A DNA stretch of 44,600 bases from Chlamydiota bacterium. GTDB taxonomy: Bacteria; Auribacterota; UBA3054; B51-G9. Every line of letters starts with the position of its first letter. The stretch's first letter is position 1. Shown here piece by piece: positions 4,668 to 44,501 of the stretch. Where the stretch lies: NCBI GenBank assembly GCA_030596365.1, contig JAUVKG010000001.1, positions 1-44,600 on the forward strand, written 5' to 3'. The translations under genes and the position numbers were made by a program. The notes under the pieces were generated by a model. The model was not told the DNA's origin and searched no databases. It was given only the letters and a program-made list of their open reading frames with translations.

Positions 4668-4668
4668 G

Positions 4669-4693
4669 AGTAAGCCGCGCTTCCCAGCGCGAG
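4669..4693 (+). repeat. stop-codon-abutting hairpin element AGTAAGCCGCGCTTCCCAGCGCGAG
   Basis: The hairpin is CGCGCT-TCCC-AGCGCG and begins 1 nt after the TGA at 4665-4667. A near-identical copy lies at 44429-44453. Confidence 0.85.
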
Positions 4694-4790
4694 CAGTGAG
4701 TAGCGAGTAGTGAGTAGTGAGTAGTGAGTAGTGAGTAGTGAGTAGTGAGTAGTGAGTAGTGAGTAGTGAGTGATGGAGTGATGGAGTGAT
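4693..4790. repeat. heptamer array GTGAGTA (about 11 units) followed by octamer GTGATGGA (about 3 units)
   Basis: The arrays are read directly from the sequence. Confidence 0.95.
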
Positions 4791-4958
4791 AGTTTGTTGG
4801 AGTTCCTCGCTTTAGCGTATGATTTGATTATCAGCATGTTGGACACAATCAAGTATTTTACATAATTCACAAAAAATATTGTGCTTGGATTTGCGACTTA
4901 ACTTTGCGAGCTTCGCGCCTTGGCGAGAGTAAAAATGGGTGAGATGAATGTGCGACAC

Positions 4959-5003
4959 TCGTCCCATATGTTCTATTTGTCCTATCTGTCCCATACGTCC
5001 CAA
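4959..5003. repeat. degenerate 9-nt array (GTCCCATAT/GTCCTATCT ...), reverse complement of the GGACA family
   Basis: The sequence reads TCGTCCCATATGTTCTATTTGTCCTATCTGTCCCATACGTCCCAA and lies next to the apbE stop codon. Confidence 0.75.
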
Positions 5004-8273: not shown

Positions 8274-8927
8274 CTATTTAATTTCCATTGACATTAAGTA
8301 CATCCCGCCTTTTTTATCTTTTGGTCCGCTGATAATTGAACGTTTACCTTTTTTGAAATTAAGAGTTTTGCTCCAAGTTTTTTTGCCGGGAACGTTCCAC
8401 ACAACTTTTGCTTTTATCCGTCCGTTATTACTGCTAAGGGGAGTTATTTTAACAGACCCTCCGCGCGAGAATTTAATTTTATATGAACTCTTTATTTTTG
8501 TAGTTTTACTTCCTGATTGTAAGAGTTTATAATCATTATAATCGAGATATCCTGTAAGTTCTTTTTCGCAATTTTCAAGATGGGAATTTGCTGATTTATT
8601 TTTTTTAGTCGTTTGACTGGCAAAAAGTATTCGTGCGTTAATATTTAATTTAGCATTTTTAGCAACGATAGCCGCGCTTCTTTTTTTGTTTGCAGTTATT
8701 TTTCTTGGGGTAATCGCTGTGCCGATTTTTTTCTTTTTAGTCACCACCGGGTTCGTTTTTTTCTTTTTAGTCACCACTGAGTTCGTTTTTTTGTTTTTAG
8801 TCACCACTGAGTTCGTTTTTTTGTTTTTCGTTTCCAATGCGTTACTATCATCAATTTTCGTTATTTTCCCAAAGCATGGCATAGTAATTAAACACATCAG
8901 CAGGAATAATAATAATTTATTTTTCAT
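8274..8927 (-). CDS. secreted Lys-rich protein with a 10-aa tandem repeat
   Basis: I chose the internal start at 8927 because it gives a signal peptide, MKNKLLLFLLMCLITMPCFG. The repeat KNKKTNSVVT occurs about 3.5 times and is encoded by a 30-bp DNA tandem repeat. The ORF overlaps the upstream ORF end by 11 nt. Confidence 0.55.
   Translation of the reverse strand: MKNKLLLFLLMCLITMPCFGKITKIDDSNALETKNKKTNSVVTKNKKTNSVVTKKKKTNPVVTKKKKIGTAITPRKITANKKRSAAIVAKNAKLNINARILFASQTTKKNKSANSHLENCEKELTGYLDYNDYKLLQSGSKTTKIKSSYKIKFSRGGSVKITPLSSNNGRIKAKVVWNVPGKKTWSKTLNFKKGKRSIISGPKDKKGGMYLMSMEIK
8726..8830. repeat. in-frame 30-bp tandem repeat, about 3.5 copies, inside CDS 8274-8927
   Basis: The units are 8726-8755, 8756-8785 and 8786-8815, plus a partial copy. 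They differ at 1-3 positions. Confidence 0.9.
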
Positions 8928-10625: not shown

Positions 10626-10633
10626 TTTTTATA

Positions 10634-10749
10634 TTGGACATTTAGGACAAATTGGACAAATTGGACAAATTGGTCATATTGGTCATATTGGTCATATGGA
10701 CATAATGGACAAATTGGTCATATGGACATAATGGACATAATGGACAAAT
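10634..10749. repeat. short tandem repeat array of 8-9 nt GGACA/GGTCA units
   Basis: The units ATTGGACAA, ATTGGTCAT and ATGGACATA are interleaved, about 13 in total, between the hemW stop and the yigZ start. Confidence 0.9.
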
Positions 10750-14730: not shown

Positions 14731-15318
14731 ATGGCTATAAAAATTTCTGTAAGAGCAGATACACTAAACTTAACCGATGAAATTAAACCGGCGGCGGAAG
14801 CTGTCAGACGCGGCGATCTCGTGATTTTTCCCACGGAAACAGTTTACGGAATTGCCGCGCGCGCGGACATTCCTGCAGCGGTTCAAAAGATTTATATTGC
14901 AAAAGACAGATCAATAGATAAGCCTTTTGCTTATCATATTGGAAGTTGGGAAATGATGTTTCGTGTCACTGGAGAAATTCCAAAAGAGATTTCAGAATTA
15001 TTAAGAAGACATTTACCGGGAGCTTATACATTTTTGATGAACATTAACGGCGTTAAAACCGGCATCAGATTCCCAAAATGCCCTGTCGCACAGGCCTTTT
15101 TAAATGAATGCGATTGTCCTGTTATGGCAACAAGTGCAAATATCAGTGACGAACCAAGTCCAACAAATATTGATATGACTGCTGACATTCAAAAGTTTGC
15201 GGCTTATATAATAGATTTTGGACCGACACCGGAAAAGGGCGAGTCAACTGTTGTTGATTTAACCACGCATCCGCCAACTGTTATAAGACACGGGAGCGGG
15301 AAGTGGGAAAATCCGTGA
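14731..15318 (+). CDS. tsaC: L-threonylcarbamoyladenylate synthase (YrdC/TsaC type)
   Basis: The YrdC domain motifs FPTETVYGIAA, ATSANISDEPS and STVVDLT are present. The 195-aa length indicates a single-domain protein. Confidence 0.85.
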   Translation: MAIKISVRADTLNLTDEIKPAAEAVRRGDLVIFPTETVYGIAARADIPAAVQKIYIAKDRSIDKPFAYHIGSWEMMFRVTGEIPKEISELLRRHLPGAYTFLMNINGVKTGIRFPKCPVAQAFLNECDCPVMATSANISDEPSPTNIDMTADIQKFAAYIIDFGPTPEKGESTVVDLTTHPPTVIRHGSGKWENP

Positions 15319-15353: not shown

Positions 15354-15488
15354 TTAGACGTTGCTCGAAAAGGGTTCAGCCGCAAAGCGGCGTTAAAATC
15401 CCCCTAAACCCCCTTTATGAAAGGGGGAATTGCTTTAGATGACTTTCAGAATTTAAATGTTTTGCACCTTTTCGAGCGCCGTCTAATT
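15352..15488. repeat. 137-nt hairpin element (22-bp imperfect terminal inverted repeat) containing a 42-nt core that recurs inverted at 16051-16092
   Basis: AATTAGACGTTGCTCGAAAAGG (15352-15373) pairs with CCTTTTCGAGCGCCGTCTAATT (15467-15488) at 20 of 22 positions. Inner hairpins are GCCGC-AAA-GCGGC and CCCCCTTT-ATG-AAAGGGGG. Confidence 0.8.
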
Positions 15489-15644
15489 AGGTGTCAGGTG
15501 TCAGGTCCTGCCTATGGCGGGATAAATGTCATGCTTGCCACGCCACAGGCGGGGTGTCAGAAATTTCATCCCAATAAATCGGGATGAAATTGCAGCTACA
15601 AATTCAAATTTTTGATTTGAATTTAATCCAAACGAGAAAAAATC

Positions 15645-16160: not shown

Positions 16161-16670
16161 TTAATTTACTTTCATCCAACTTTCCAAACTATCTGCTGAC
16201 TGGTAGCCTTGTTTTCTTGAAATAATTCCACCGTTTTTGAAGTGGAATAACGCCGGTACAGCCTGGATTGAATATTTTGCAGAAAGTTCTTTATTTTTTG
16301 AAGCATTAATTTTTAGAATAATTATTTTATTTTTATATTTTCTTGCTAAATTATAAAGTTCCGGCATAAGTTTACGGCATGGAGGGCATGCTGTCAAATA
16401 AAAGTCGGCGATCAAATTTTTATCGCCCGCATTTTTTATTGCAGTTTCAAATTCAGCGGTAGAATTGATATCTATCACATTAGTTACATCTTCCGGTGTT
16501 TTTGGAACACCGGCAAAAAGATTACTTAGCAGCAAACCGAAAACCGCTCCGAGTGCTGCGGCGCCCCACCAGGTACTTGTAAACGGGCATGTTCCCGTAC
16601 TGCATTTCCCGAAATAGCCCAATGCGCCCCCGATTGCCGCGCCGGCAATTATGAACAAGATTTTTGTCAT
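16161..16670 (-). CDS. membrane-anchored thioredoxin-family protein
   Basis: The N-terminus has a Gly-rich TM region. The C-terminal thioredoxin fold carries the CPPC active site (DFYLTACPPCRKL) and the AVPALFHFKNG motif. Confidence 0.8.
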   Translation of the reverse strand: MTKILFIIAGAAIGGALGYFGKCSTGTCPFTSTWWGAAALGAVFGLLLSNLFAGVPKTPEDVTNVIDINSTAEFETAIKNAGDKNLIADFYLTACPPCRKLMPELYNLARKYKNKIIILKINASKNKELSAKYSIQAVPALFHFKNGGIISRKQGYQSADSLESWMKVN

Positions 16671-17218
16671 ATTATCTCCTGATTTTTAAATTTATCCTCA
16701 TTCCATGTTGCAGGATTGTTAATTATATAATTTTCTATTCTAATGTAATCATTTTCATTTCGAATAATATGGTCCCAATATCGTAATTGCCACAAATGTT
16801 TTTCAAAACGTTGCCAATTTATATTTTTTACACCTCGAATATATTCGTTGGTTGTCATTGTTTTAAACCAATCCATAATATCAAATAATGATATTTTAAG
16901 AGGACGCCCACGTAGGGACGTCCCTACGTGGGCGTCCTCTTTATAATTATCCGATGTTTCAATAATACAATGGAAATGATTTGGCATTACAATATATTTG
17001 TGGCATTTCATCTTTATAAATTTATTTTCCAATTCATGATACCATTTTTCGATCATTTTCCCTGCATCATTCAATATCATTTTATCGTCAACGATTTTAC
17101 CAAACAAACATTTGTGGTTTTGTACACACGTGGTGATAAAATATAATCCCTCCAGTGAATAATCGTATCCTTTTAACCGGATTGAACAGCGGTGATGTTT
17201 TTCTGGATTGTATTTCAT
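16667..17218 (-). CDS. REP-associated tyrosine transposase-like protein (RayT / IS200-like Y1 HUH family, COG1943)
   Basis: The HUH motif MPNHFHCII is present. The C-terminal block LWQLRYWDHIIRNENDYIRIENYIINNPATW contains the catalytic-Tyr region typical of the family. The stop codon overlaps the thioredoxin start (ATGA). The ATG at 17218 lies 3 nt downstream of the queA stop at 17222. Confidence 0.8.
   Translation of the reverse strand: MKYNPEKHHRCSIRLKGYDYSLEGLYFITTCVQNHKCLFGKIVDDKMILNDAGKMIEKWYHELENKFIKMKCHKYIVMPNHFHCIIETSDNYKEDAHVGTSLRGRPLKISLFDIMDWFKTMTTNEYIRGVKNINWQRFEKHLWQLRYWDHIIRNENDYIRIENYIINNPATWNEDKFKNQEII
16898..16941. repeat. perfect 44-bp palindrome inside the RayT-like CDS
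   Basis: AAGAGGACGCCCACGTAGGGA-CG-TCCCTACGTGGGCGTCCTCTT. I verified by hand that each arm is the exact reverse complement of the other. It encodes EDAHVGTSLRGRPL. Confidence 0.95.
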
Positions 17219-18274: not shown

Positions 18275-18284
18275 GTATTCGCAG

Positions 18285-18312
18285 CTCGTAGTTCGTAGTT
18301 GGTAGTTCGTAG
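18285..18312. repeat. heptamer array TCGTAGT x4 (one variant) just upstream of the queA start
   Basis: The sequence reads CTCGTAGTTCGTAGTTGGTAGTTCGTAG. Confidence 0.85.
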
Positions 18313-18447
18313 AAATAAAGGTATTCGGTGTTCAATTCGATTTAAGAACAAGGAACATCGATTTTTGATATTCGATTTATTAACTTCTTAAATCTTAAAT
18401 CGTTAATCGGTGTTCGGTGTTCGCAAAGCATCCGGCGTATGCCGGGC

Positions 18448-18545
18448 AGGTGTCAGGTGTCAGGTGTCAGTATTCAGTATTCAGTATCTAGTATCTAGTA
18501 TCTAGAATTAACTAATAACTATTAACTATTAACTATTAACTATTT
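18448..18545. repeat. compound heptamer array: GGTGTCA x3, GTATTCA x2, GTATCTA x3, CTATTAA-type x5-6
   Basis: The arrays are contiguous and read directly from the sequence. They end 3 nt from the SpoIID-like stop codon (18548-18550). Confidence 0.95.
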
Positions 18546-18547
18546 TT

Positions 18548-23933: not shown

Positions 23934-25472
23934 TTATTCGCCTCGTATAGAAAGTAAAAATTCTGCGTTACTCTTTCTTTTTTTCATTTGCTCAATAATT
24001 GTTTCCATTTTTTCGGTTGGATTCATACCGCTAAGAGCTTTTCTTAGAAGCCATACTTTCGAAAGTTCTTCAGGGTGGAGCAGAAGTTCTTCGCGTCTTG
24101 TTCCTGAGCGCTCGATATCAATAGCCGGGAACACGCGTTTATCACTAAGTTTTCTATCGAGGTGGCACTCCATATTACCTGTTCCTTTAAATTCTTCAAA
24201 AATAATATCATCCATTTTGCTTCCGGTATCAATTAGAGCAGTTGCAATAATTGTAAGACTTCCGCCCTCTTCACAGTTTCTTGCCGAGCCGAAGAAACGT
24301 TTAGGTTTATGAAGTGCATTTGCATCAAGGCCGCCGGTAAGGATTTTTCCGCTTACAGGCTGAACGGTATTATAAGCTCTGGCAAGACGAGTAATACTAT
24401 CAAGAAGAATAACCACGTCACGTTTATGTTCAACAAGCCGCTTCGCTTTTGCGATAACCATTTCAGCAACCTGGATATGCCGCTCCGGTGGTTCATCAAA
24501 AGTAGAACTTATAACTTCACCTTTAACATTACGCTGCATATCAGTAACTTCCTCCGGTCGTTCGTCTATAAGGAGTACAATAAGAGCAGCTTCCGGAGCG
24601 TTTTTAGTTATTGCGTTAGCGACGTCCTGCATAATGATAGTTTTACCGGTACGTGGCTGAGCAACAATCAGTCCGCGTTGTCCTTTACCGATAGGAGTCA
24701 TTAAATCCATAACACGTGTTGTGATTTTGTTGGAGTCATTTTCAAGAACATAACGTTTCTCGGGATATAAAGGAGTGAGATTTTCAAATAAGATTTTATT
24801 TTTATTTTCGTCCGGAACATCGTTATTAACAGTTTCTACTTTCAAAAGAGCAACGTATTTTTCTTTATCTTTTGGCGGTCTGAATACACCTGCGATAGTA
24901 TCTCCTGTTTTTAACTCAAAGCGTCTAATTTGAGATGGTGAAACATAAATATCTTCCGGGCAAGGCAGATAATTATAATGAGGCATTCTAAGGAAGCCGA
25001 ATCCATCCGGTAGGACTTCAAGAACGCCTTCTCCGAAAATATAACCGACTTTTTTAGTTTGTGCCTTAAGAATTTCAAATATAAGATGATGACGTTTAAG
25101 ATTTCCTATATTAGGTATTTGCAAATCTCTGGCAATTTCTGACAGATCCGTCATTGTTTTTTTCTGCAATTCAATTATATTAAGTGCATTTTCACGAGCA
25201 AAAACGATAGCTGAATCTTCTCCTGCATTATTTTTCGCCGGTTTTATTTTATCATCAGTTTTTTCTTCTGTTTTGACCGAAGTTGTTTCTTCGATTACAG
25301 GCAACTCCTGCTGCACGGCATTATTATCAGCTGTTTGTTCAGTTGATTGAATATTGACAGTTGCATCAGCGTTTTCAATTTCGACTGATTTAGTTATTTT
25401 CTTAGCAGTTTTTTTTGCAACTTTTTTTGTTATTTTTTTTGCTGTTTTTTTTGTCGTCCTTTTTGTAGCCAC
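23934..25472 (-). CDS. rho: transcription termination factor Rho, with a Lys-rich N-terminal extension
   Basis: The RNA-binding domain is present ([16 protein letters not shown]). The Walker A context is [13 protein letters not shown], and RLARAYN and the C-terminal SGTRREELL are also present. The N-terminus has about 100 aa of [10 protein letters not shown] repeats followed by an acidic stretch. Confidence 0.95.
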
Positions 25473-27152: not shown

Positions 27153-29588
27153 TTATTGAGCAGAAGCAACATGGTGTGTCTGCCCTGACGGATCGATCAA
27201 TTTTGCTGTCAGGAAAACCAAGAGGTTAGACTTTTTAGACACTTCTGACTCACCTCTAAAGAATCTGCCTATTAAAGGAAGGTCGCCAAAAATAGGTGTT
27301 TTATCATGAGTTTTAATAATTTGGTCGTGCATTAATCCGCCCATAACAATTGTATCGCCATCATTAACTAAAACAGTAGTTTTTAATGATTGAACAAAGA
27401 ACTGAGGAAGTTCGTAAACATTATTTCTTGAAGATACAAACTGTCTGAAGCCGAGTAAATCAGAAACTTCCGGATTAATATCCAGTTCGATAGTTTGATT
27501 ATCTGCTTTAACAGAAGGAGTAACATACAATCTTGTACCATATTCTCTTGAATCCCATTCTTTTGGAGTAACGGCATAATCATAAACTACACTATACGCG
27601 TCACCAACATCTACATCCTGATCTTCCGCTTCTTCAATTGTTTTGTTATATCTTAAAGTAATTACGCTTTTAATTTCACCGCGCTGTCCGTTAAGGACGG
27701 TAATTTCCGGAGCAAAAATAGTATGAATACCTTCGGAATTATCTAAAGCATAGATAACTGAGCGAAATTTTGCAGGACCAATAACGCCGGAAATATCAAA
27801 CACTTTACCAAGCGGATCGTTCACGGTTTTTTCTTCCGCGTGCATTTTACCTAAATTTTGCTGATATGTGCTCAGAGTATTCAGGCTCGGAAGATAAGCA
27901 GAAGAAACAGTTGTTGTATAAGTTGAATACATATCTTGAAGCTGCTGTTCGTAAATAGGAGCCATTGTGCCGCCCTGCGAAATTACAGGTGAATAAACTT
28001 GAACCATATTTTGATAAGCTTTATATTCGGCACCTGCTTTCTGGCGTTGCTGTAAGACAACAGATTGCTGCTGTTCAATAGATGAATAAGCTGATTCGAT
28101 ATCATAAACATCTTTCTGGAGATAGGCGGGCATTTGAGGACGAAGAGCTTTTTCACGCAGGTAATCTTCGTATGGGTCGCCTGTAGAAACCAGTTCAGGT
28201 CTACTGTATGCTGAAGCGACAGGATCATAAGTATTTTCATTCATAAAGGATCTGATATATCTTAGACCCGGAGTAAGTTCTTTTTGTTTATTAGGAGCTT
28301 CAAGAAAGAATCTGTCTCCGTATTTAGAATCACGATTCCATCTATAATTTTTTGTAAGGAACTGTCTAAAAACAAGTTGATTCATATCATCGCTACGCAT
28401 AGTAACAAATCTTGCCTGGATTTTCACCTGAAAAGGAGTTTTACTGAATCTTTTAATAAATTCTTCTATTATTTTAAGATTTGCATCAGTATTTCTAACA
28501 ATAAGTCTATTGTTTCTGGTGTCGTAAGTAACGGTTGCACCTTCAGTTACCGGAATACCAATTTTCTCAAGAAGCTTAGTTACTTTCTTATTTGAGCTTC
28601 CTTCAACATCCGGCAGATCAATCATATCAAGACTACGAGACAACTGAAAGACTTTTCTTTTAAGAGTAACATTTTCTTTACTGTTAATAACAACAGCATT
28701 ATCATCTATTCGGTATGTAAGTCCTTTAACTTTACAAACATATTTAATAACTTCAATTAAAGGAATATTTGAAAGTTTAAGAGAAATAGTATCATTTTTT
28801 GATTCCGTAAGCTGTTTAATAGCTTCAGGATCAGTAACGATTGAGACTTTCGGATCACTAATTTGGAATAAATGTTCAAAAACAACAGGAAGCTGCGCAT
28901 CGACAAATTGAATTGAAGGTATTACTTGTTCAACATTCTTATCCATAAGTCTTTGTGTTAATCCACCGGCTTGACTAATGACATCTTCAATTTCTTTTTC
29001 ACGCCATGGTTTAATCAGCCATGCTTTTGAAATATCCTGCAAGCGTTCGCGTCTAACGATATCAAAATCATCAAGAGTGATTTTATTTAATTCTTCCTGA
29101 CAAGTTCTAATATATCGTCTTGCGGTAATATTATAAGGGTCTCTTTGAACGACTTCTTTGAAAGTATTTAGCGATTTTCTATATTCGCCTTCTCTATAAT
29201 ACTCGCGACCTTCGATCATGAGGACATTAATTTCCATATCGCCTTTTGAGCTTCTTTTTTGTATTTGAGTATTATAAGCGAACGCTTTTTTAACACGAGT
29301 CCAAAAGCCTTCTACATCCCCCACATCCTTAGGATTAGATTCATTAAGGTCAGTAACTTCATATCCCTGACTTTTTTCGTTCTTTTTATAAATGCTGGAC
29401 ATTTTATCCCAAAAAGAAACTGGCTCTTCATTTTGGGTTTCGCCTTTTTGCATTTCAACGTTATTAACTAAGTTCTGCTCTTTTTCAATAATATTATCAG
29501 ATTTTGCGTCATCTGCTGCAAAAGATAAAGAAACAATAAGCAGCGCCATAGTGGCAATGAAGAAATTTCGTGAGTGCAAGGTATTCAT
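27153..29588 (-). CDS. secretin-family outer-membrane channel protein (second of a tandem pair)
   Basis: A signal peptide is followed by one TPR-like unit. An N0/STN-like domain is present (IQFVDAQLPVVFEHLF...GLTYRIDDNAVVINSK), then a Secretin_N-like unit (RLIVRNTDANLKIIEEFIKRF). The C-terminal secretin motif is VLVNDGDTIVMGGLMHDQIIKTHDKTPIFGDLPLIGRFFRGESEVSKKSNLLVFLTAKLI. Confidence 0.8.
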   Translation of the reverse strand: MNTLHSRNFFIATMALLIVSLSFAADDAKSDNIIEKEQNLVNNVEMQKGETQNEEPVSFWDKMSSIYKKNEKSQGYEVTDLNESNPKDVGDVEGFWTRVKKAFAYNTQIQKRSSKGDMEINVLMIEGREYYREGEYRKSLNTFKEVVQRDPYNITARRYIRTCQEELNKITLDDFDIVRRERLQDISKAWLIKPWREKEIEDVISQAGGLTQRLMDKNVEQVIPSIQFVDAQLPVVFEHLFQISDPKVSIVTDPEAIKQLTESKNDTISLKLSNIPLIEVIKYVCKVKGLTYRIDDNAVVINSKENVTLKRKVFQLSRSLDMIDLPDVEGSSNKKVTKLLEKIGIPVTEGATVTYDTRNNRLIVRNTDANLKIIEEFIKRFSKTPFQVKIQARFVTMRSDDMNQLVFRQFLTKNYRWNRDSKYGDRFFLEAPNKQKELTPGLRYIRSFMNENTYDPVASAYSRPELVSTGDPYEDYLREKALRPQMPAYLQKDVYDIESAYSSIEQQQSVVLQQRQKAGAEYKAYQNMVQVYSPVISQGGTMAPIYEQQLQDMYSTYTTTVSSAYLPSLNTLSTYQQNLGKMHAEEKTVNDPLGKVFDISGVIGPAKFRSVIYALDNSEGIHTIFAPEITVLNGQRGEIKSVITLRYNKTIEEAEDQDVDVGDAYSVVYDYAVTPKEWDSREYGTRLYVTPSVKADNQTIELDINPEVSDLLGFRQFVSSRNNVYELPQFFVQSLKTTVLVNDGDTIVMGGLMHDQIIKTHDKTPIFGDLPLIGRFFRGESEVSKKSNLLVFLTAKLIDPSGQTHHVASAQ

Positions 29589-29639
29589 GGAACCTCCAAT
29601 TTATCGGTCATTATATAAGTTAAAAATTACTATTTGTAT

Positions 29640-32120
29640 TTACAAAGATGCTACAGTTTCATCATCAATAGATTCTTCATCAGTGTCCTGTGCCTGTTCT
29701 TCTGTTTCAGCTTTTTCGGCTTGTTTTTTGAGTTGTTTTTCACGCAGTTCTTTATAAGATTTTCCACCTGGTGTAACAATATTAGTTGTCACAAATATAA
29801 GCAGATTACGTTTATCCTGATATGAACCTTCTGCACGGAACAAACGTCCTACCAACGGTAAATCTCCCCAGAAGGGAACTTTATCATTATATTTTTTCAG
29901 TTCTTCCATTATCATTCCGCCAAGAACAATAGTTTCACCATCATTAACAACAACGTGAGTTTTTACTTCTGAAGTTTTAAATCTTGGAACAGATAATACG
30001 ATCGGCTCAATCGGCGGAATAATATTATCATTACCAACATAGACAGTTACCAGATGCGGCTCAATTTCTTCACTTACCTGAGCAGTAACTTCCATACTTA
30101 CAGTTTTGCCATTTTCGCCTATTGTTGGAGAAACAACAAGTTGAATACCAACATCTTCTTTTAAGGTACTTTCTACAGTTGCGTAACCGGCATAAGTACC
30201 TGCAACAGCATTCATGCTAAAGCCACCGAATATTCCACCGCCGCCCTGGCCTGTGAAATAAATAATAGCAGGTTTATAAACGGTATATTCATCAGGATAC
30301 ATAACTTCAGTAATTTGTCTTATACTGACACGCGACTGACCACTTACAGTAGTAATTTTAGGAGCTGAGAGAATATCTGTATCGGTCTGATTACTAATTC
30401 CATGAAATATCAAACCTATTTCAGGTGATGTTAATGCGCTTGTAAAGAAACCGATAACATTATCAGTAATCATGTTATTACCTTCACGAAGACCAACCAT
30501 GCCAAGACCTTGTTTTAAAGTGTCTGAATAACGGCTGTTTCGTCTTCCGGTTGCATATCTGCGAAGAGCTCCGGTAAGATCTGTCGGATTAATTATTCCT
30601 CCTTGCGAAACACCTGCACGATCGCTGCCACGGCTATAAATATTGAAAGGACTTTTAAGTTTCATTCCGATTGATAACTCTTCAAGGTTTTGATCACTTA
30701 TTAAAACGAAACGGGTTTGAATTTCCACCTGCAGTTGTTCTTCATCAGTACCAAGCTCTTTAATAAATCCATCGATTTCGTCAAGGATTCCCGGAGTTTG
30801 TCTAATAACTAATGTTCCGGTACTTGGTTCAAGAAATATAGTTGATCCTGCCGGCCAGCTTGGAACTGAGTTTTTAATCATACGTACGATTTCAGGTTCA
30901 ACAGATGCACTTTCGAATTCATCTCCTGTATCTTCTGTATCATCACCAAATAAATCAAATTCTCCTGTATCTTCACTTGTTGACGCTTTTTCTTCAGCTG
31001 TACTTAAAGCACGGGCAGAAACTGTCCAGAATTTTGTTTCCATTTCGCCTTCGCCTTTAGAAATAACGATGGCATACTGGTCAATAGTATAAGTTAAGCC
31101 TTGCTGTTCACAAACATACTGAATCGCCTGAAGAGCAGTAGGATTATAAAGTTCAATACTTGTAGTCTGTTCCTGCGAGGTGCCAAGGTTAACAATAATG
31201 CTTAATTCTGCAACTTCAGCGATATAATTAAGGACTTCCTGAATTTGCGCATCTTTAAAAGAAAGATTTTCAAGTTTAACATTGGCTTTCTGTATGATTG
31301 CCGCGCGGCGCTTCATTTCAGGTGAAAGTTCTTCTGTATCGTCTGCAGTTGTTGCTTCTACATATTCTTCGGGATGATGGAAAAAAGATTTTATTAAATC
31401 TTCCATTATCTGCCGACGTTCAATTCTTCTATCATCAGCAATTATTCTTCCCTGTTTTCTAATAAGTTCTTTAAGGAATCTTCTGGGCTGAGGATTTTCC
31501 GGTTCGATTTGTATAGCTTGTTTATAAGTGGCTTTTGCTTCTTCGCATCTGCTTTGAACTTCAAGGTCACGTGCCTGTTTCATATACAATCTACATTTTT
31601 CGCCATCGCTCATGCTTTCGGCAGCAATTTTGCCGATATTTTTTGAAACAGATTCTGTTATACGCTGTCTTGCAAGCAGTACGCCTTTAATTGCGACTTT
31701 ATTTTTCGGTTTATGAACGAGGGCTTCTCTGTACCATTTAGTTGCCGCTTCATAATCTCTTATAGCAATACGTGATTCTGCATATCCTATATAGACATCA
31801 AAAAGGATTGAGTTAACTTTAGATATTTTTGATTTTGCTGTAAGATTAGCCGGGTTTTTATTTAAAGCTTCTGTTAAATAATGATATGCTTTTTTATATT
31901 CACCCTGATTCATTGCTTTAATAGCCTGAGTTGTAATCTCTTCTGATTCAGCGCGCATTTCTTCTCTTTGCAGAGCTATTTGTTCAGCAAGTTGCGGAGA
32001 AAGTAATTTCGCTTTCTGTTTTAACGCTTCATCTATTGGTGACTGTGCAACTGCCAGTTGTGATAATAGCAGTAATGACAGTACGCCTCTTGAAATTGCT
32101 TTTAGGATGGGCTTTTTCAT
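29640..32120 (-). CDS. secretin-family outer-membrane channel protein with an N-terminal TPR region (first of a tandem pair)
   Basis: A signal peptide is followed by about 170 aa of TPR-like repeats. An N0/STN-like domain is present (FKDAQIQEVLNYIAEVAELSIIV...GLTYTIDQYAIVISK), then an acidic linker. The secretin C-terminus is VVNDGETIVLGGMIMEELKKYNDKVPFWGDLPLVGRLFRAEGSYQDKRNLLIFVTTNIV. Confidence 0.85.
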   Translation of the reverse strand: MKKPILKAISRGVLSLLLLSQLAVAQSPIDEALKQKAKLLSPQLAEQIALQREEMRAESEEITTQAIKAMNQGEYKKAYHYLTEALNKNPANLTAKSKISKVNSILFDVYIGYAESRIAIRDYEAATKWYREALVHKPKNKVAIKGVLLARQRITESVSKNIGKIAAESMSDGEKCRLYMKQARDLEVQSRCEEAKATYKQAIQIEPENPQPRRFLKELIRKQGRIIADDRRIERRQIMEDLIKSFFHHPEEYVEATTADDTEELSPEMKRRAAIIQKANVKLENLSFKDAQIQEVLNYIAEVAELSIIVNLGTSQEQTTSIELYNPTALQAIQYVCEQQGLTYTIDQYAIVISKGEGEMETKFWTVSARALSTAEEKASTSEDTGEFDLFGDDTEDTGDEFESASVEPEIVRMIKNSVPSWPAGSTIFLEPSTGTLVIRQTPGILDEIDGFIKELGTDEEQLQVEIQTRFVLISDQNLEELSIGMKLKSPFNIYSRGSDRAGVSQGGIINPTDLTGALRRYATGRRNSRYSDTLKQGLGMVGLREGNNMITDNVIGFFTSALTSPEIGLIFHGISNQTDTDILSAPKITTVSGQSRVSIRQITEVMYPDEYTVYKPAIIYFTGQGGGGIFGGFSMNAVAGTYAGYATVESTLKEDVGIQLVVSPTIGENGKTVSMEVTAQVSEEIEPHLVTVYVGNDNIIPPIEPIVLSVPRFKTSEVKTHVVVNDGETIVLGGMIMEELKKYNDKVPFWGDLPLVGRLFRAEGSYQDKRNLLIFVTTNIVTPGGKSYKELREKQLKKQAEKAETEEQAQDTDEESIDDETVASL

Positions 32121-34077: not shown

Positions 34078-35784
34078 TTATCTACGTCTGGACTTGCCTT
34101 TACGATTATTAGCCTCTTTTATATCTTCCAGATCGGGTTTGTCGTTGTAATTGGTATCAAGGTCAATGTCCAACTCGAAAGTGTAGTATTTTTTCTCTTT
34201 AGTCATTCTGCGTTGAGTAAAGCCTGCAAATCCGGGGATTTTTGCAACTCTCTTCTTGCGTTTCGGCATATCGTCCATCCAATTACCATAATAACCACCA
34301 CGAAGCAGCAATCTCACCGGGCGGCTATAAAGTTCAGATTTTTCATCTACAATAATTCCCCCCGGACCGGCATTATCGGATTCTAATAATTCTCTTTCAT
34401 AAATATCGCCAAAAGTTATATTTTCAATTCCGCTAAACCACAGATTTGAAGGAATAGCTTTGCTAAAATCCTGTAATGCTTTAACATATAGATCACGACT
34501 CAAAATTACGCGATGGATTTCATCTATTTCGAGTTGTTTTTTATCGATTTGTTTTTGAATTTTACCAATTTTGCTGTTAAGTGTTGTTACTTTACTTAAT
34601 TCATTATTGGCGTTATCTGCCTGTTCTTTCACATCTGTACTTTTCATGCTTACAAGTGCAAAAAGAACAAAGAATATTGCAGCAAATATATACGCGGATG
34701 TCGCAATCCAAACTTTCTTCCGTTCCAACGACTGCTGAAGCTGAACTCCTTTCGGCAGAATATTTATTGCATAAGGAGCTAAACCGGCGCCGGCAAGCGC
34801 GCAACCAAGTGCCTGCGGATAGAGAGAAGGATTTTCTATTGTTTTATCAAATGCCTGAAAAACATTAAATTCCGATACATCTATTTTAAGACGACCGGAA
34901 AGAAAAGTTGTCAAGCCGGGAATATTACTATAACCGCCACAGACAAGAAGTTTTTGCGGTTTTTCTCCTCCCAGTTGAGATTTGAAAAACGTTAATGATC
35001 TTGTAATTTCCATTACAAGTCTTGACATTGTTGCACGCACATTTTTCAACACATCAGATTCTTCACCTGCGGGAGCAGCCAAATTGATTTGGGTAGCAAT
35101 TGTTTTTTTAGCTTCTTCTTCCGACATATTCAAGTTTTTAACAAGGGAAGAAACTATAGTTTTACCTGTAACCGGCAAAGTTCTAATCCAGATTTTTTTA
35201 CCGTCAACTATAACAAGATCACTTGCGGTAGCACCAATATTAAGAATTGCAACGGAAGTTTCCGCTTCACCGCCCGAAGAATGTAAACATACATTTCCGA
35301 TTGCCATTGCTCCGCAGTCAATTGAATTAGCTTCAAGACCTGCTTCGGCTAATATTGAGATAATATTTTCAACGACTTCTTTTTTAACTGCTGCAAGAAC
35401 GAGGTGACTCTGGTCGTTTTCTTCTCCCACAATCACGCTATCCCAATCAACGTTATTTAAAGAAACCGGAATTTGCTTATCGGCTTCCTGTTCAAGCTGA
35501 TTTTTAATATCCTCAGTTTTAATCTTCAGTGCTCTGATAAGCACTTGATCATTTGGAGCAGTGATATATAATTCGTCTTCTGGTTGGATAAGTTTTTCGC
35601 TTTTCCATGATTTCAGCACATTAACAACCGCTTCGCGCCAAGCTGAATCATCAGCATCAATTGCGAGATTTAAATCCTGCGACTTGCATTCTTTTATTCC
35701 CGGTTTATCGGAAATAATTGACAGAGCCACATATTTCAGTGTTTCATGTCCGAGATCGATACCTATTATTTTTTTGTCGGCCAC
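34078..35784 (-). CDS. PilM-PilN fusion protein (actin-like ATPase-fold PilM domain fused to a PilN-like TM/coiled-coil domain)
   Basis: The gene has a GTG start with AGGTGAGGA 7-8 nt upstream. The PilM-like actin fold shows IGIDLGHETLKYV, DCGAMAIGN, ILNIGATASDLVIV and LLVCGGYSNIPGL. An INILP motif (compare the PilN N-terminal INLLP) follows directly, then a TM helix (IATSAYIFAAIFFVLFALV) and a coiled coil. Confidence 0.8.
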   Translation of the reverse strand: MADKKIIGIDLGHETLKYVALSIISDKPGIKECKSQDLNLAIDADDSAWREAVVNVLKSWKSEKLIQPEDELYITAPNDQVLIRALKIKTEDIKNQLEQEADKQIPVSLNNVDWDSVIVGEENDQSHLVLAAVKKEVVENIISILAEAGLEANSIDCGAMAIGNVCLHSSGGEAETSVAILNIGATASDLVIVDGKKIWIRTLPVTGKTIVSSLVKNLNMSEEEAKKTIATQINLAAPAGEESDVLKNVRATMSRLVMEITRSLTFFKSQLGGEKPQKLLVCGGYSNIPGLTTFLSGRLKIDVSEFNVFQAFDKTIENPSLYPQALGCALAGAGLAPYAINILPKGVQLQQSLERKKVWIATSAYIFAAIFFVLFALVSMKSTDVKEQADNANNELSKVTTLNSKIGKIQKQIDKKQLEIDEIHRVILSRDLYVKALQDFSKAIPSNLWFSGIENITFGDIYERELLESDNAGPGGIIVDEKSELYSRPVRLLLRGGYYGNWMDDMPKRKKRVAKIPGFAGFTQRRMTKEKKYYTFELDIDLDTNYNDKPDLEDIKEANNRKGKSRRR

Positions 35785-36193
35785 TTGTATTCCTCACCTA
35801 ATATATATTAAGTATTTAAACTGATAAAGTGCTTGTATATTTACATTTTGCGCACAATTTTATACGCTTTAAATATTTAAGCACTTGCGTTATTTTGCGA
35901 GAACCCTACTTTAAAATTTACAAACTTTTTCATTAATTGTGCAATATGATACCAAAAGTATTTGCTATTGTCAAGCACTTATTATATTAATTGATACATC
36001 ATCGTTTTTATTCCACCAGCCTTGTGGTAATGGGGTATATAATTACAACAATACCTCATATATTCAACAAATCGGAAGGCCATTTATCCTTTGTCTGAAA
36101 GGTGATGATAAATCAGTCCGGGGTATACAGTATATCACCGAAAAAGAGCGTTTTCTTGCAAAAATTTGCTGCCTGATTTTCAATCAACTCGTG

Positions 36194-37288
36194 TTATATT
36201 TTGTTCTTCTTAACTTTGGCAAGTTTTTTTCTTAATTCGCTGACATCCTCTTCCTGGTTTCCGGTAACGGTAATACGCTGCGCACGGCCAAGTGCCTGTA
36301 TTACAATATCATATTGACGAGTTTCGAATGCGGTTTTAGCAATATTTATTTGTATTTCGGGATTTTCAGGCATATATGTTCCTGCCTGCCGGTATCTATG
36401 AAGTGCTATTTTATATTCTTTTTGTTCTACGGCTGTTTTCGCCCATTTAACATACAACAGAGCTATTTCTTTTTCAATTTCATTTCCTTGTTTAATTAAG
36501 TAAACTTTTTCAAGAAGATTTATTCCCTGATTGTATTTACCTTCTTCCCCGAGAAGAATTGCTTTCATGTATTGAGCATCAACAGAATTGGGTTTTAAAG
36601 CAAGAGACATTTTTATTTTAGACATCGCTATTTTATAATCATGTCTGTTGTAAGCCATTAATGCAAGATAATATAAAGCAGGCGCAGCAACAGGAGAATC
36701 AATTTCAACTTTTTCCCACGCTGCTACCGCTTCATTTGTTTTAGCCAAATATAATTTTGCCAGGCCTAGATTATACCACACAGCGCTATTATTTGAGACT
36801 ATTCCTGTTACCTGTTCGTAACAGGTTGCGGCAGAAGCATACTGTGTTAATGATGAATATCCGACTCCAAGATTGTATAAATAATCAGGATTTCTGGGAT
36901 CCATATAAACTGCGCGTTCTAAATATTTAACGGCTTCTTTTCGTCTGTTATTTCGTCCAAGAGTTACTCCAAATAAATATACAAGACGAGGATTCCTGTT
37001 ATCTACCGAAATTGCTTTTTCAAAATATGGTATGCTGTTTTCAAACTGACCTATTCGCTCATAACACGCGCCAAGATTAAGATATGCTTCCCCAAGATTA
37101 GGGTCATGCTGGACCGCCGATCTGAACGAACGTATCGCGGAACGGTAATTTTGACGTTTAACTTGTTTAATTCCTTCGCGAAAATATGTTTGAGCCTGTA
37201 TTGGAGACTGTTGAAATGTATTTGTCTGCACAGCCTGTAAATTAACTGTGGCTAAAATTAATAATATTGTTATTGTTAATTTTATCAT
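36194..37288 (-). CDS. secreted tetratricopeptide-repeat protein
   Basis: A signal peptide is followed by at least 8 TPR units (AYLNLGACYERIGQFENSIPYFEKAI, and others). It lies upstream of and co-directional with the pilus-like module, separated from it by 409 nt. Confidence 0.8.
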   Translation of the reverse strand: MIKLTITILLILATVNLQAVQTNTFQQSPIQAQTYFREGIKQVKRQNYRSAIRSFRSAVQHDPNLGEAYLNLGACYERIGQFENSIPYFEKAISVDNRNPRLVYLFGVTLGRNNRRKEAVKYLERAVYMDPRNPDYLYNLGVGYSSLTQYASAATCYEQVTGIVSNNSAVWYNLGLAKLYLAKTNEAVAAWEKVEIDSPVAAPALYYLALMAYNRHDYKIAMSKIKMSLALKPNSVDAQYMKAILLGEEGKYNQGINLLEKVYLIKQGNEIEKEIALLYVKWAKTAVEQKEYKIALHRYRQAGTYMPENPEIQINIAKTAFETRQYDIVIQALGRAQRITVTGNQEEDVSELRKKLAKVKKNKI

Positions 37289-37292
37289 TAGC

Positions 37293-37373
37293 AGGTAGTC
37301 AGGTGTCAGGTGTCAGGTGTCGGGTGTCAGGTGTCAGGTGTCGGGTGTCGGGTGTCAGGTGTCAGGTGTCAGG
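37293..37373. repeat. heptamer array GGTGTCA/GGTGTCG, about 11 units
   Basis: The array is read directly from the sequence. It begins 4 nt from the ATG of the TPR gene at 37288. Confidence 0.95.
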
Positions 37374-37378
37374 AATAT

Positions 37379-37577
37379 AATTCCATCATTCCATCAATCC
37401 ATCATTCCATCAATCCATCAATCCATCATTCCATCATTCCATCATTCCATCATTCCATCATTCCATCATTCCATCATTCCATCATTCCATCAATCCATCA
37501 TTCCATCAATCCATCATTCCATCATTCCATCATTCCATCATTCCATCAATCCATCATTCCATCAATCCATCATTCCA
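37379..37577. repeat. octamer array TCCATCAT/TCCATCAA, about 25 units
   Basis: The array is read directly from the sequence. It ends 20 nt from the 3' end of rnpB. Confidence 0.95.
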
Positions 37578-37596
37578 ATAATTCATAAATCAAATT

Positions 37597-37974
37597 GTAC
37601 TGCCCGCGGCATAAGCCGGATTCTGTCTCCCCGTTTAGGAGAGGGTAACCATTCATCTTTGCGACCTACCCGAAACATATAAACGGCAGGCGCGTCCGGA
37701 AGCGAACTTCCAATGTTTCCTATATGGTCTTGCACCGGATGGGGTTTTCCGTGCCCGCTACGTTACCGTTAGCGGCGGTGAGCTCTTACCTCGCCTTTTC
37801 ACCCTTACTCTGAATCCAGCAAGCTGAATTCAGGGCGGTATATTTTCTGTGGCACTTTCCGTCCACTCGTTAAGAGTGTCCCTTGGTTTCTCAAGGCATC
37901 CTGCCTACAGGTGTCCGGACTTTCCTCTTCGAACAAACAATGTTTGTCCAAAACGGTTACCGCGCGGGCAGTAC
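37597..37974 (-). ncRNA. rnpB: RNase P RNA, bacterial type A
   Basis: The reverse complement contains GAGGAAAGTCCGGAC (P4 5' strand), GTAAGGGTGAAAAGG, GGTAAGAGCTCACC and ACAGAATCCGGCTTAT (P4 3' strand). The terminal P1 pairing is GTACTGCCCGCG with CGCGGGCAGTAC. Confidence 0.9.
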
Positions 37975-38047
37975 AATCATTATTATTTGATTTTTTATAC
38001 AGCTATACTATTATACCGAAAACTGAGAATAAATGCTTGTATTTTAA

Positions 38048-38083
38048 GGTGTCAGGTGTCAGATGTCAGATGTCAGGTGTCAG
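38048..38083. repeat. heptamer array GGTGTCA/GATGTCA x5
   Basis: The sequence reads GGTGTCAGGTGTCAGATGTCAGATGTCAGGTGTCAG and lies upstream of rnpB. Confidence 0.9.
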
Positions 38084-38186
38084 AGAAAAATTACAAATCT
38101 ATGATTTGTCTAATTTTACGAGGATTCTCGGAATGGATAAAAATTCAAAGATTTTGACCATTTCGGCATTTTAAATAAAATTTGTA

Positions 38187-38216
38187 TTCATTCGTGTTTA
38201 TTAGTGTTCATTAGTG
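38187..38216. repeat. 10-nt tandem repeat TTCATTCGTG/TTTATTAGTG/TTCATTAGTG
   Basis: Three units are visible. Related units (ATTCGTGTA) occur at 44536-44567. Confidence 0.8.
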
Positions 38217-38257
38217 GTTAAAGGAATTGCATTAGTTTTTTCCGTGGTATTAGTGTC

Positions 38258-38285
38258 AAAAAAATGCCCCGCAAAATCACGGGGC
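38258..38285 (-). terminator. rho-independent terminator downstream of the COG1579 gene
   Basis: The minus strand reads GCCCCG-TGATTTTG-CGGGGC followed by ATTTTTTT. Confidence 0.7.
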
Positions 38286-38343
38286 ACAAATTTTCAAAAA
38301 TGTATTATCTCAAAATATCAAATGTCATCAAACTTTTTTAACT

Positions 38344-39081
38344 TTATCCAGCTAATGCTTCATTGTTTTCTATATAAAGAATTCTGCCGCAGTTTTTGCA
38401 GGTAACTAATGCATCGCCATCATTTAATGACATAATATCGGCAATGATCTGAGCGGGTAAACTTATGTGACATCCTCCGCACATACTATTATTTGCCTGA
38501 ACGATAATTTTTGGTGCACGTTTTTCATACAAATTATTATACGCCGAAATATATTTATCATTAATTTCTTTAACGACATCTTTCCGAATAAGTTTGTATC
38601 TTTTAGATTTTCCCTGAATTTCCAACAATTGTACTTTTACTTCATCGGCTTTTTTCAGCAAATCTTTTTTAATTTCATCAACCTGCGTCTTACCTTTTTC
38701 AAGATCGACTGAATTTTCTTCGGTTTGCTGAATATGATTTGCTAAATCCTCTTCCGCTTTAACTTTTGCTTCCTGTGCAGCTTTTATTTCTTTTGAAAGT
38801 GCTTGGTAAGCGTCATTTTTTTTAACTAATTTCTGATTACCTTCAAGATGTTTTATTTTCAGTTCTGCATCTTCAACATCAAGTTCAAGTTTCTTTTTAT
38901 CAATTTCCATCTGATTTTTATTTTCCTTTTTGGAAAATTGATCGTCAGCTGCCTGCTGATAACAAATCTGCTCATCACGTAACTTCTTAATTACATTGTT
39001 TTTCTCGCGTTGTATTTCAATTATTTCTTTATCAAGATTTTGCAAGTCGAGAAGTTTTTTGAGAGTATTGTTCATAAGCAT
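38344..39081 (-). CDS. COG1579/DUF164 coiled-coil protein with C-terminal C4 zinc-ribbon
   Basis: The N-terminus is LLDLQNLDKEI, followed by a long coiled coil. The C-terminus carries CGGCHISLP...CKNCGRILY. Confidence 0.8.
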   Translation of the reverse strand: MLMNNTLKKLLDLQNLDKEIIEIQREKNNVIKKLRDEQICYQQAADDQFSKKENKNQMEIDKKKLELDVEDAELKIKHLEGNQKLVKKNDAYQALSKEIKAAQEAKVKAEEDLANHIQQTEENSVDLEKGKTQVDEIKKDLLKKADEVKVQLLEIQGKSKRYKLIRKDVVKEINDKYISAYNNLYEKRAPKIIVQANNSMCGGCHISLPAQIIADIMSLNDGDALVTCKNCGRILYIENNEALAG

Positions 39082-40383: not shown

Positions 40384-40459
40384 TGGTGGAGAATACCGGG
40401 ATTGAACCGGTGACCTCCTGGTTGCAAACCAGGCGCTCTCCCAGCTGAGCTAATTCCCC
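40384..40459 (-). tRNA. tRNA-Ala (anticodon UGC), CCA encoded
   Basis: The reverse complement is GGGGAATTAGCTCAGCTGGGAGAGCGCCTGGTTTGCAACCAGGAGGTCACCGGTTCAATCCCGGTATTCTCCACCA. It has the G3:U70 identity pair and a TGC anticodon in a 7-nt loop. Confidence 0.95.
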
Positions 40460-40519
40460 TTTTCATAAGAAAGACCTTCGCGTTGCGCATTATTGCTAAA
40501 GCAAACAACGTGTTAAGCA

Positions 40520-40596
40520 TGGTGGGCCTAGATAGACTTGAACTATCGACCTCGCGCTTATCAAGCGCGCGCTCTAACCAACTGAGCTATAGGCCC
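40520..40596 (-). tRNA. tRNA-Ile (anticodon GAU), CCA encoded
   Basis: The reverse complement is GGGCCTATAGCTCAGTTGGTTAGAGCGCGCGCTTGATAAGCGCGAGGTCGATAGTTCAAGTCTATCTAGGCCCACCA. It folds as a cloverleaf with a GAT anticodon. Confidence 0.95.
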
Positions 40597-44453: not shown

Positions 44454-44501
44454 CCATGGAGCCATGGAGTGATGGAGTGATGGAGTGATGGAGTGATGGA
44501 G
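44452..44501. repeat. octamer array (GCCATGGA x2, GTGATGGA x4)
   Basis: The array is read directly from the sequence. It uses the same octamer as 4768-4790. Confidence 0.95.

Follow-up and report, generated by a model that had tools for sequence, protein, structure and literature searches.

Tandem repeat arrays between rnpB and a TPR gene as the largest case of a dispersed, hypervariable population of intergenic repeats in an uncultured bacterial lineage

Introduction

In the 44.6-kb stretch of contig JAUVKG010000001.1 analysed here (hereafter, the window), the spacer between rnpB, the gene for RNase P RNA, and a gene for a tetratricopeptide repeat (TPR) protein consists almost entirely of two neighbouring arrays of 8-nt and 7-nt tandem repeats. 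The question raised by this locus is whether the arrays form a switch for the pilus-like genes that follow the TPR gene, as an earlier note on this DNA had proposed, or whether they are one instance of a more general feature of the genome. By comparing the spacer with the rest of the window and with the orthologous loci of related strains, we found that the rnpB–TPR arrays are the largest case of dispersed 7-9-nt intergenic repeats and not a special locus. The sample of arrays on which this is based comprises the 44.6-kb window and approximately 100 kb of relatives, not a whole genome.

Structure of the arrays in the rnpB–TPR spacer

The components of the spacer and the two genes that flank it are as follows:

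37595..37972, minus strand: rnpB, bacterial type A RNase P RNA (Rfam RF00010, 224.7 bits, full-length model match)
37578..37594, minus strand: unique lead 3′ of rnpB, 17-18 nt (TTTGATTTATGAATTATT; 17 nt as TTTGATTTATGAATTAT), from minus-strand parsing
37380..37577, minus strand: octamer array, 24.6 copies by parsing, 0% C and 37.5% G (Tandem Repeats Finder (TRF), unit parsing and composition)
37374..37379, minus strand: AT-rich 6-nt junction TTATAT between octamers and heptamers, which reads TATAAT on the plus strand (37376-37381)
37292..37373, minus strand: heptamer array, ~11 copies, 82 nt, 46% C and 14% G, folding energy 0 kcal/mol (TRF and parsing)
36194..37288, minus strand: TPR protein gene, 364 aa, with a signal-peptide-like N-terminus, PilW/PilF-like by weak profile hits (Pfam, NCBIfam)

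The spacer is 306 nt long, of which 280 nt (92%) belong to the arrays. The basic observation of the earlier note, that arrays fill the space between rnpB and the TPR gene, was hence borne out by Rfam, TRF and parsing. Its coordinates needed minor corrections: the TATAAT hexamer is indeed located at 37376-37381, whereas rnpB ends at 37595 rather than 37597, the unique lead is 17 nt rather than 20, and the heptamer array stops 3 nt rather than 4 from the TPR start codon. By TRF, the octamer array (37380-37577) has a period of 8, 24.8 copies and a score of 347, and the heptamer array (37292-37373) a period of 7, 11.6 copies, 93% matches and a score of 134, whereas the top TRF scores of simulated windows (20 second-order Markov runs) ranged from 36 to 83. 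When parsed on the minus strand, the octamer array contains 24 full units (17 GGAATGAT and 7 GGATTGAT) followed by a partial GGAAT; the heptamer array contains seven CCTGACA, three CCCGACA, one CCTGACT and a degenerate ACCTGCT, after which come an A and the ATG at 37288. In RNA form, the heptamer reads CCUGACA and the octamer GGAAUGAU.

Several trivial or familiar identities for these repeats could be set aside. The units are 7-8 nt long and abut each other directly, with no spacers, and so differ from clustered regularly interspaced short palindromic repeats, which combine repeats of 24-48 nt with unique spacers. Two plus-strand open reading frames (ORFs; 37310..37588 and 37317..37682) that cross the repeats and rnpB were judged to be spurious. 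The arrays neither lie in an ORF nor represent translated extensions, because each of them has stops in all frames. A permissive Rfam search of 35700-38400 detected no known RNA family besides rnpB, the two sub-gathering hits having E-values of 0.24-0.42. Reading by eye, approximately 41 ATG triplets can be counted in the octamer array (37380-37577, minus strand), each of which runs into an in-frame TGA no more than three codons later (ATG ATG GAA TGA); if this array is transcribed, its RNA would be densely packed with minimal upstream ORFs.

Such a picture could also arise if one assembly contained a chimeric or over-expanded repeat, and the short-read contigs of several relatives (L001, L003, L004, L007 and L014; labels of this form denote the loci of relatives) end within arrays, which indicates that the length of the repeats is hard to assemble. 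However, the same arrays were found in independent assemblies of related strains (L001-L004 and L014), several of whose contigs break within them, and the arrays are therefore not the artefact of one assembly. Identical units occur in identical order in at least five independent assemblies, the unit-level variants agree (L002, L003, L004 and L014 differ by single bases only), and L002 covers its entire spacer. We consider an assembly artefact to be extremely improbable.

Distribution of arrays in the window

The window contains approximately 20 arrays with periods of 7-9 nt and at least 2.9 copies. Together they cover 998 of the 5793 non-coding bases (17%) versus 84 of the 38807 genic bases (0.2%), and they are present in 10 of the 16 spacers of at least 150 nt, where some precede a start codon and others follow a stop codon or separate convergent genes. 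In the window and the relatives taken together, a period of 7 is the commonest (27 of 60 arrays). The arrays that are most informative for comparison with the rnpB–TPR spacer are:

18275-18547 (feature 18278..18544), minus strand: 273-nt spacer between the spoIID-like and queA genes, filled by six heptamer arrays (TRF; orthologues in L020 and L021)
10631..10746, minus strand: 9-mer array, 13 copies, whose end is 5 nt from the ATG of a UPF0029/yigZ-like gene (TRF; same position in L020, 12836-12930)
44456..44501, plus strand: octamer-family array ATGGAGTG, 5.8 copies, just 3′ of the glutamate-cysteine ligase gene (TRF; the unit also forms the post-rnpB array of L002)
4691..4790, plus strand: GAGTAGT (11.6 copies) and GAGTGATG (2.9 copies) arrays between two convergent 3′ ends (TRF)
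38047..38083, minus strand: CTGACAC array, 5.3 copies, of the heptamer class of the TPR spacer, just upstream of the conserved rnpB promoter block (orthologous array in L019)

In the queA spacer, the CTACGAA array ends 3 nt from the queA ATG, much as the heptamer array does at the TPR gene. Such proximity to start codons holds for the TPR, queA and yigZ-like genes and their orthologues, and about half of the arrays in this small sample are located at or after stops or in the middle of spacers. Arrays at 15310, 15897 and 44456 come just after stop codons, others lie between convergent genes at 4691-5000, and arrays also follow the gshA- and Sua5-like genes. The idea that the arrays are a trait of envelope genes was not sustained, as they are also found at queA, at the yigZ-like gene and at 3′ ends, genome-wide.

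The units themselves are shared among loci. The octamer family of the rnpB spacer has further copies at 4768 and 44456, the ACACCTG class occurs at four window loci (15489, 18447, 37292-37373 and 38047), the AACTATT class at 87 and 18507, and the AATACCG class in four lineages or loci; at least 38 different heptamer classes were counted in ~150 kb. Beyond the window, the ACACCTG, AATACCG and AACTATT classes recur at unlinked loci and in diverged lineages (L012, L017, L019 and L020).

Turnover of the arrays among relatives

All the relatives are uncultured, and their TPR proteins are 72-100% identical to that of the window; scans of metagenome and genome collections with the TPR protein yielded three more useful loci. 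Gene order is conserved in these relatives (Zn-ribbon gene, rnpB, TPR gene, pilM, Amuc_1100-like gene, Amuc_1099-like gene and two secretin genes), and the following sequences are found between rnpB and the TPR gene:

L002 (TPR protein 91% identical): 11.5 octamers of the ATGGAGTG type, a unique island of 146 nt that includes a terminator-like hairpin, another 3 octamers and ~15 heptamers
L017 (92%): 0 octamers; 2 CTGACAC and 4 CGAATAC
L005 (86%): no array; only ACTGACACCAAACACCTGCTAATG, which is seed-like
L008 (81%): 3 ACGAGAY
L012 (76%): REP-like (repetitive extragenic palindrome) hairpins and heptamer scraps
L018 (77%): REP-like hairpins and heptamer scraps
L019 (72%): ~15 AACAAAG reaching into the ATG, with CACCTGA heptamers upstream of rnpB, as in the window

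The closest comparison is with L001, which has one substitution in the 1095-nt TPR gene and an identical 409-nt TPR–pilM spacer, yet two CCTGACA units (14 nt) fewer. The spacers of the window, L002 and L017 likewise differ by whole units. Comparable turnover is seen at the queA and yigZ-like loci: behind the spoIID-like stop, TAGTTAA is repeated 5 times in the window versus 7.6 times in L020, and the queA ATG is preceded by CTACGAA in the window, by CGAATAC in L020 and by no array in L021. Arrays are also present in a more distant relative, L022 (a 4.04-Mb circular contig, 62% QueA identity), where 58.8 copies of the nonamer TTTCAATCT form a 516-bp array at 4332-4847; a called 121-aa gene that overlaps this array is probably spurious. 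The TPR gene has dN/dS values of 0.15-0.22 against its orthologues, which indicates equal purifying selection with or without arrays. Just after rnpB, the motif GATTTATGGA is found in relatives (compared with L005, L017 and L002).

These comparisons support the statement in the earlier note that the arrays are prone to slippage and changing: repeat number is not invariant among related strains (L001 being two heptamers short), and copy number, unit mix and even presence vary among relatives with TPR proteins 86-100% identical. With high confidence, the arrays are a dispersed, intergenic, heptamer-dominated, lineage-wide and hypervariable population that stops at constrained sequence. The safest description of the rnpB–TPR spacer is that of a dumping ground, which different lineages have filled with different repeats.

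Other kinds of repeat share these spacers. L005 and L017 contain unique sequence composed of a strong hairpin with a T-run and a palindrome. One reading was that the window had lost this sequence, which would be an ancestral terminator of rnpB and control region of the TPR gene; it was rejected because the window has the two-hairpin block as well, at 15562-15632, where an unrelated ORF of 84 aa follows. The block is a dispersed element of ~75 nt (window 15562-15632, plus strand; L005 2539-2631; L017 150-236), located 20-35 nt upstream of an ATG in each case and composed of AAATTCATCCC...GGGATGAATTT followed by the palindrome AAATTCAAAT-N5-ATTTGAATTT. It could be an element resembling REPs or miniature inverted-repeat transposable elements, or a terminator-operator cassette. 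In addition, REP-like GC-rich hairpins (GTAGGGGCAATCCCTTGTGGTTGC; CCCCTC...GAGGGG) occupy the same spacers as arrays at L018 400-511, L002 320-360, L012 2575-2790 and window 15395-15430, and L002 and L018 have a 29-nt stretch in common, in inverted orientation.

Transcription and translation signals

Two promoters that frame the TPR gene are relevant to how the arrays might act:

38010..38040, minus strand: conserved rnpB promoter block ACAAGCATTT...TTTTCGGTATAAT, with its -10 TATAAT at 38015..38010, conserved in the window, L005, L012 and L019; a predicted function
35946..35974, minus strand: sigma-70-type promoter TTGACA-17-TATCAT (GCTTGACA-17-TATCAT), TG-extended, before pilM, with 11/12 consensus matches and unique in the window

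A consensus scan of the minus strand from 37289 to 37594 detected neither a sigma-70-like promoter nor an intrinsic terminator, and such a scan is meaningful in this lineage because the nearby pilM promoter is a near-perfect match to the consensus. A Shine-Dalgarno (SD) sequence is likewise absent from the spacer. Both results agree with the earlier note, which had seen no SD sequence and no room in unique DNA for a conventional promoter. Its suggestion that CTGACA units provide a -35 hexamer stood only in part: CTGACA and TTGACA do agree at 5 of 6 positions, but none of the copies on the gene strand is followed by a -10 hexamer at a distance of 16-18 nt, and a promoter built from these units was rejected. 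On the plus strand, a 10/12 site (GTGTCA-18-TATAAT, 37352-37381) is built from a heptamer unit plus the array junction and would direct antisense transcription through the octamers into rnpB; it was also rejected, as its TATAAT is missing from the homologous junction of L002 and is probably fortuitous. Upstream of rnpB, the sequence CTGACA-17-TAAAAT (38069..38041, minus strand) is promoter-like and includes a CTGACA unit. Since neither promoter nor terminator is found on the minus strand of the spacer, read-through from rnpB is a live option for the TPR gene.

The lack of an SD sequence, which the earlier note had thought worthy of remark at the TPR gene, turned out to be the norm, as SD-like 4-mers precede 9 of 35 window genes and 26 of 35 (~74%) have none. 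The predicted RNA of the spacer is unusually free of structure. The whole spacer folds at -33.3 kcal/mol versus -51.5 +/- 4.3 kcal/mol for shuffled sequences (z = +4.2), with 100 of 100 shuffles folding better, and the AACAAAG tract of L019 has a folding energy of ~0 kcal/mol.

On the other side of the TPR gene, the 409-nt TPR–pilM spacer (35785-36193) contains the pilM promoter followed by a ~160-nt conserved leader, a GAGG Shine-Dalgarno sequence and the GTG of pilM. The promoter is invariant in an alignment of eight lineages whose TPR proteins are 72-100% identical, and is predicted to serve pilM and the downstream pilus-like and secretin genes. The TPR gene therefore does not head the pilus-like genes transcriptionally and, because those genes have their own promoter, the direct reach of the arrays is the TPR gene.

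This bears on the possibility that the spacer is a contingency or rheostat locus, where slippage would alter the leader or the promoter geometry and so phase-vary or grade TPR expression. Copy number does vary between near-identical strains as well as close relatives, the gene immediately downstream of the array encodes a secreted envelope protein, and there are precedents in 5′ untranslated region (UTR) heptamer repeats that set expression (PMC12721329) and in the AGAT repeats of uspA2 (cited in PMC4679880). The former are those of Haemophilus influenzae hmw1A and hmw2A, which have a 7-bp (ATCTTTC)n repeat in the 5′ UTR and a leader hairpin with a G-rich arm that is cleaved by RNase III (PMC12721329). 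In both systems, a heptamer array of variable copy number is placed between transcription signals and the start of a surface gene, in a leader that is transcribed in hmw and probably also here. Unlike in hmw, the leader here is predicted to be unusually unstructured (z = +4.2), and the repeats occur throughout the genome and not just at contingency genes. The hmw mechanism requires a long hairpin between repeat and G-rich arm, whereas the leader here is less structured than every shuffle; an analogous hairpin of the G-rich octamers with the C-rich heptamers was rejected on the same ground, the fold being weaker than all 100 shuffles. Moreover, the arrays also accompany housekeeping genes and 3′ ends and are not restricted to surface or host-interaction genes (queA, UPF0029, gshA- and Sua5-like genes and the rnpB neighbours being among those concerned), the pilus-like operon has its own invariant promoter, and no -35/-10 pair on the gene strand flanks or includes the arrays. 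They lie neither in an ORF nor between promoter hexamers, their position in a leader being presumed, and array-free relatives keep the TPR gene under equal constraint. A contingency locus is unlikely in the light of these observations.

The composition of the heptamer array points to a different mechanism. Rho utilization (rut) sites are C-rich, G-poor and unstructured tracts of untranslated RNA, ~70-80 nt or longer. The heptamer array could be a Rho loading site of tunable length, which would set how much read-through from rnpB enters the TPR gene. At 82 nt, with 46% C, 14% G and 0 kcal/mol, it has the composition of such a site, the octamer array before it contains no C, the stretch from rnpB to the ATG has no hairpin terminator, and the genome encodes Rho (rho gene in the window, 23934..25472). 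However, the evidence is compositional, the heptamer unit is also found upstream of the rnpB promoter and in other untranscribed or irrelevant positions where termination makes no sense, and A-rich, C-poor units take its place at the TPR site in other lineages (AACAAAG in L019). We regard a tunable rut site as very doubtful.

Comparison with known repeats

Short tandemly repeated repetitive (STRR) heptamer families were reportedly described in cyanobacteria by Mazel et al. in 1990, and STRRs are said to occur inside the rnpB gene of heterocystous cyanobacteria (Vioque 1997, NAR 25:3471). The arrays studied here resemble them in having tandem 7-nt units, many families at many intergenic loci, near-absence from coding DNA, strain-specific copy numbers and an association with rnpB. 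They differ in that they flank rnpB instead of interrupting it, 8-mers and 9-mers are common, and the host is not a cyanobacterium. Several properties of STRR-like repeats were found here, namely tandem 7-nt units, dispersed non-coding arrays, unit families at unlinked loci and whole-unit indels between strains (in L001, at a contig end). In contrast, none of STRR1 CCCCAGT, STRR2 TTGGTCA and TAACTGA is present in tandem in the window, not even twice, and the likeness to STRR and TAACTGA repeats is one of kind, not of sequence family. Repeats in the 3′ flank of Escherichia coli rnpB, with ~100-nt units and terminator-like structures, were reportedly described by Reed and Altman in 1983; they are similar in being tandem repeats directly downstream of rnpB and dissimilar in unit length (~100 nt versus 7-8 nt here).

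The TAACTGA intergenic direct repeats are known from marine Beggiatoaceae, some Cyanobacteria and Bacteroidetes (MacGregor 2015, PMC4679880), and a regulator-binding or post-transcriptional network has been proposed for them in Beggiatoaceae (PMC4679880). Like the arrays here, they are intergenic heptamers, many of which end a few nt from starts without a ribosome-binding site, they show indels in 7-nt steps between strains, and in some genomes they form long arrays alongside other heptamers (PMC4679880). Habitat is a further similarity, since several of the relatives found here come from Guaymas Basin sediment as well. Unlike the TAACTGA repeats, the arrays here comprise many unit classes rather than one, reach 11-25 copies rather than the 2-6 in BOGUAY, and are often located at 3′ ends.

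Origin and possible roles of the arrays

As a whole, the explanation that we favour, and consider probable, is that these are STRR-like slippage arrays that form a structure-free leader for a TPR gene transcribed by read-through, with no dedicated pilus switch. The arrays would grow and shrink by replication slippage in unconstrained intergenic DNA, starting from local seeds such as GATTTATGGA just after rnpB and CTGACAC ~15 nt before the ATG, both of which are present as single copies in array-free relatives. They stop at rnpB, at the conserved rnpB promoter block and at the ~10 nt that immediately precede start codons. In this strain, neither a promoter for the TPR gene itself nor a terminator for rnpB can be recognised, so the TPR mRNA would most likely originate at the rnpB promoter; judged from these signals, expression by read-through appears about as plausible as the contrary. 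Such a transcript would contain the arrays as a structure-free, SD-less leader that may suit the SD-independent initiation which most genes here must use. Shifts in copy number may alter TPR expression somewhat, as a by-product. A tuning role of the arrays is possible, and we see roughly equal grounds for and against their having no dedicated function.

A number of observations weigh against this explanation. The two-unit difference of L001 is situated at the end of a short-read contig, and the 9-mer array of the yigZ-like gene is found at one and the same position in the window and L020. If random local seeds merely slipped, the ACACCTG class would not be expected to occupy four window loci and to persist in a lineage at dS ~1; the recurring unit classes hint at a preferred vocabulary that arises from a copying mechanism, from selection or from a factor that binds the units. 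The distance between array and start codon is as short as 0-5 nt in several cases, and C tends to exceed G on the mRNA strand in units next to start codons (in 5 of 7 independent cases, one of the others being a tie). It is also possible that a promoter of unrecognised type is present inside the arrays.

Some of these observations could be accommodated if the arrays were cis-regulatory binding sites for an S1-, Csp- or CsrA-type factor, forming a genome-wide post-transcriptional network. Identical unit classes are shared by unlinked loci and by different lineages, the TPR, queA and yigZ-like genes and their orthologues have arrays that stop 0-5 nt short of the ATG, the affected genes lack SD sequences, and there are parallels in the TAACTGA repeats (PMC4679880) and in heptamers of Nostoc (bioRxiv 10.1101/2022.06.06.494920). 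On the other hand, at least 38 heptamer classes in ~150 kb are too many for one factor, unrelated units replace each other at orthologous starts (CTACGAA versus CGAATAC at queA; CCTGACA versus AACAAAG versus ACGAGAY at the TPR gene), many arrays are found after stops or between convergent genes, and array-free orthologues exist. Binding sites of this kind are hence an improbable explanation for the arrays.

A bolder proposal would combine several of these elements into a lineage-wide cis-regulatory code, in which a small vocabulary of 7-9-nt units (CCTGACA, CGAATAC, TAGTTAA and GTCCAATAT-like 9-mers) would form unstructured, SD-less leaders beside start codons, to be read by an RNA-binding factor or Rho, the C-rich tract would gate read-through from rnpB to the TPR gene, and the number of units would be a heritable and reversible rheostat. 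We regard this proposal as speculative and rather unlikely; if true, it would extend the heptamer phenomenon of cyanobacteria and Beggiatoaceae to a third, unrelated lineage in the same sediments. The slippage explanation remains the one that we prefer for the arrays as a whole.

Neighbouring genes and other features of the window

Downstream of pilM and the Amuc_1100-like and Amuc_1099-like genes are two tandem secretin genes (27153-32120, minus strand; 826 and 811 aa) that resemble the Amuc_1098 family, the first of which encodes N-terminal TPR repeats. Profile hits of the Amuc_1098-1101 families and CdsZ-like hits are the basis for assigning the host, which has a GC content of ~36%, to the Planctomycetes–Verrucomicrobia–Chlamydiae (PVC) group. 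Genes for tRNA-Ile(GAT) and tRNA-Ala(TGC) form a pair at 40384-40596 (minus strand). Such a pair is typical of the spacers of rRNA operons; no rRNA gene was detected anywhere in the window.

Among the few genic arrays is a 12-nt tandem repeat (3.8 copies, 25409-25453) in the ~100-aa N-terminal extension of the rho gene (23934-25472, minus strand). A 30-nt tandem repeat (3.4 copies, 95% matches) is located at 8726-8828, where ORFs of both strands overlap. Between queA and a thioredoxin-like gene, an ORF at 16667-17218 (minus strand) shows a weak match to Y1/IS200-like transposases and is absent from L020 and L021.

Implications

The arrays explain why short-read assemblies of this lineage break at these spacers, and they serve as a warning to annotators against calling ORFs through them. 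Cyanobacteria have been known since 1990 to contain dispersed heptamer arrays, which were later recognized in giant sulfur bacteria and in some Bacteroidetes as well, and whose origin and function are still unexplained. The finding alone reveals no new regulatory mechanism. What is new here is that an uncultured lineage whose pilus genes are of PVC type has a dense, highly dynamic set of arrays, with a different vocabulary of units and with orthologous loci that can be compared with and without arrays. The lineage offers a natural test bed for how arrays are seeded and how fast they turn over, and it shows that genes tolerate arrays placed directly against their start codons.

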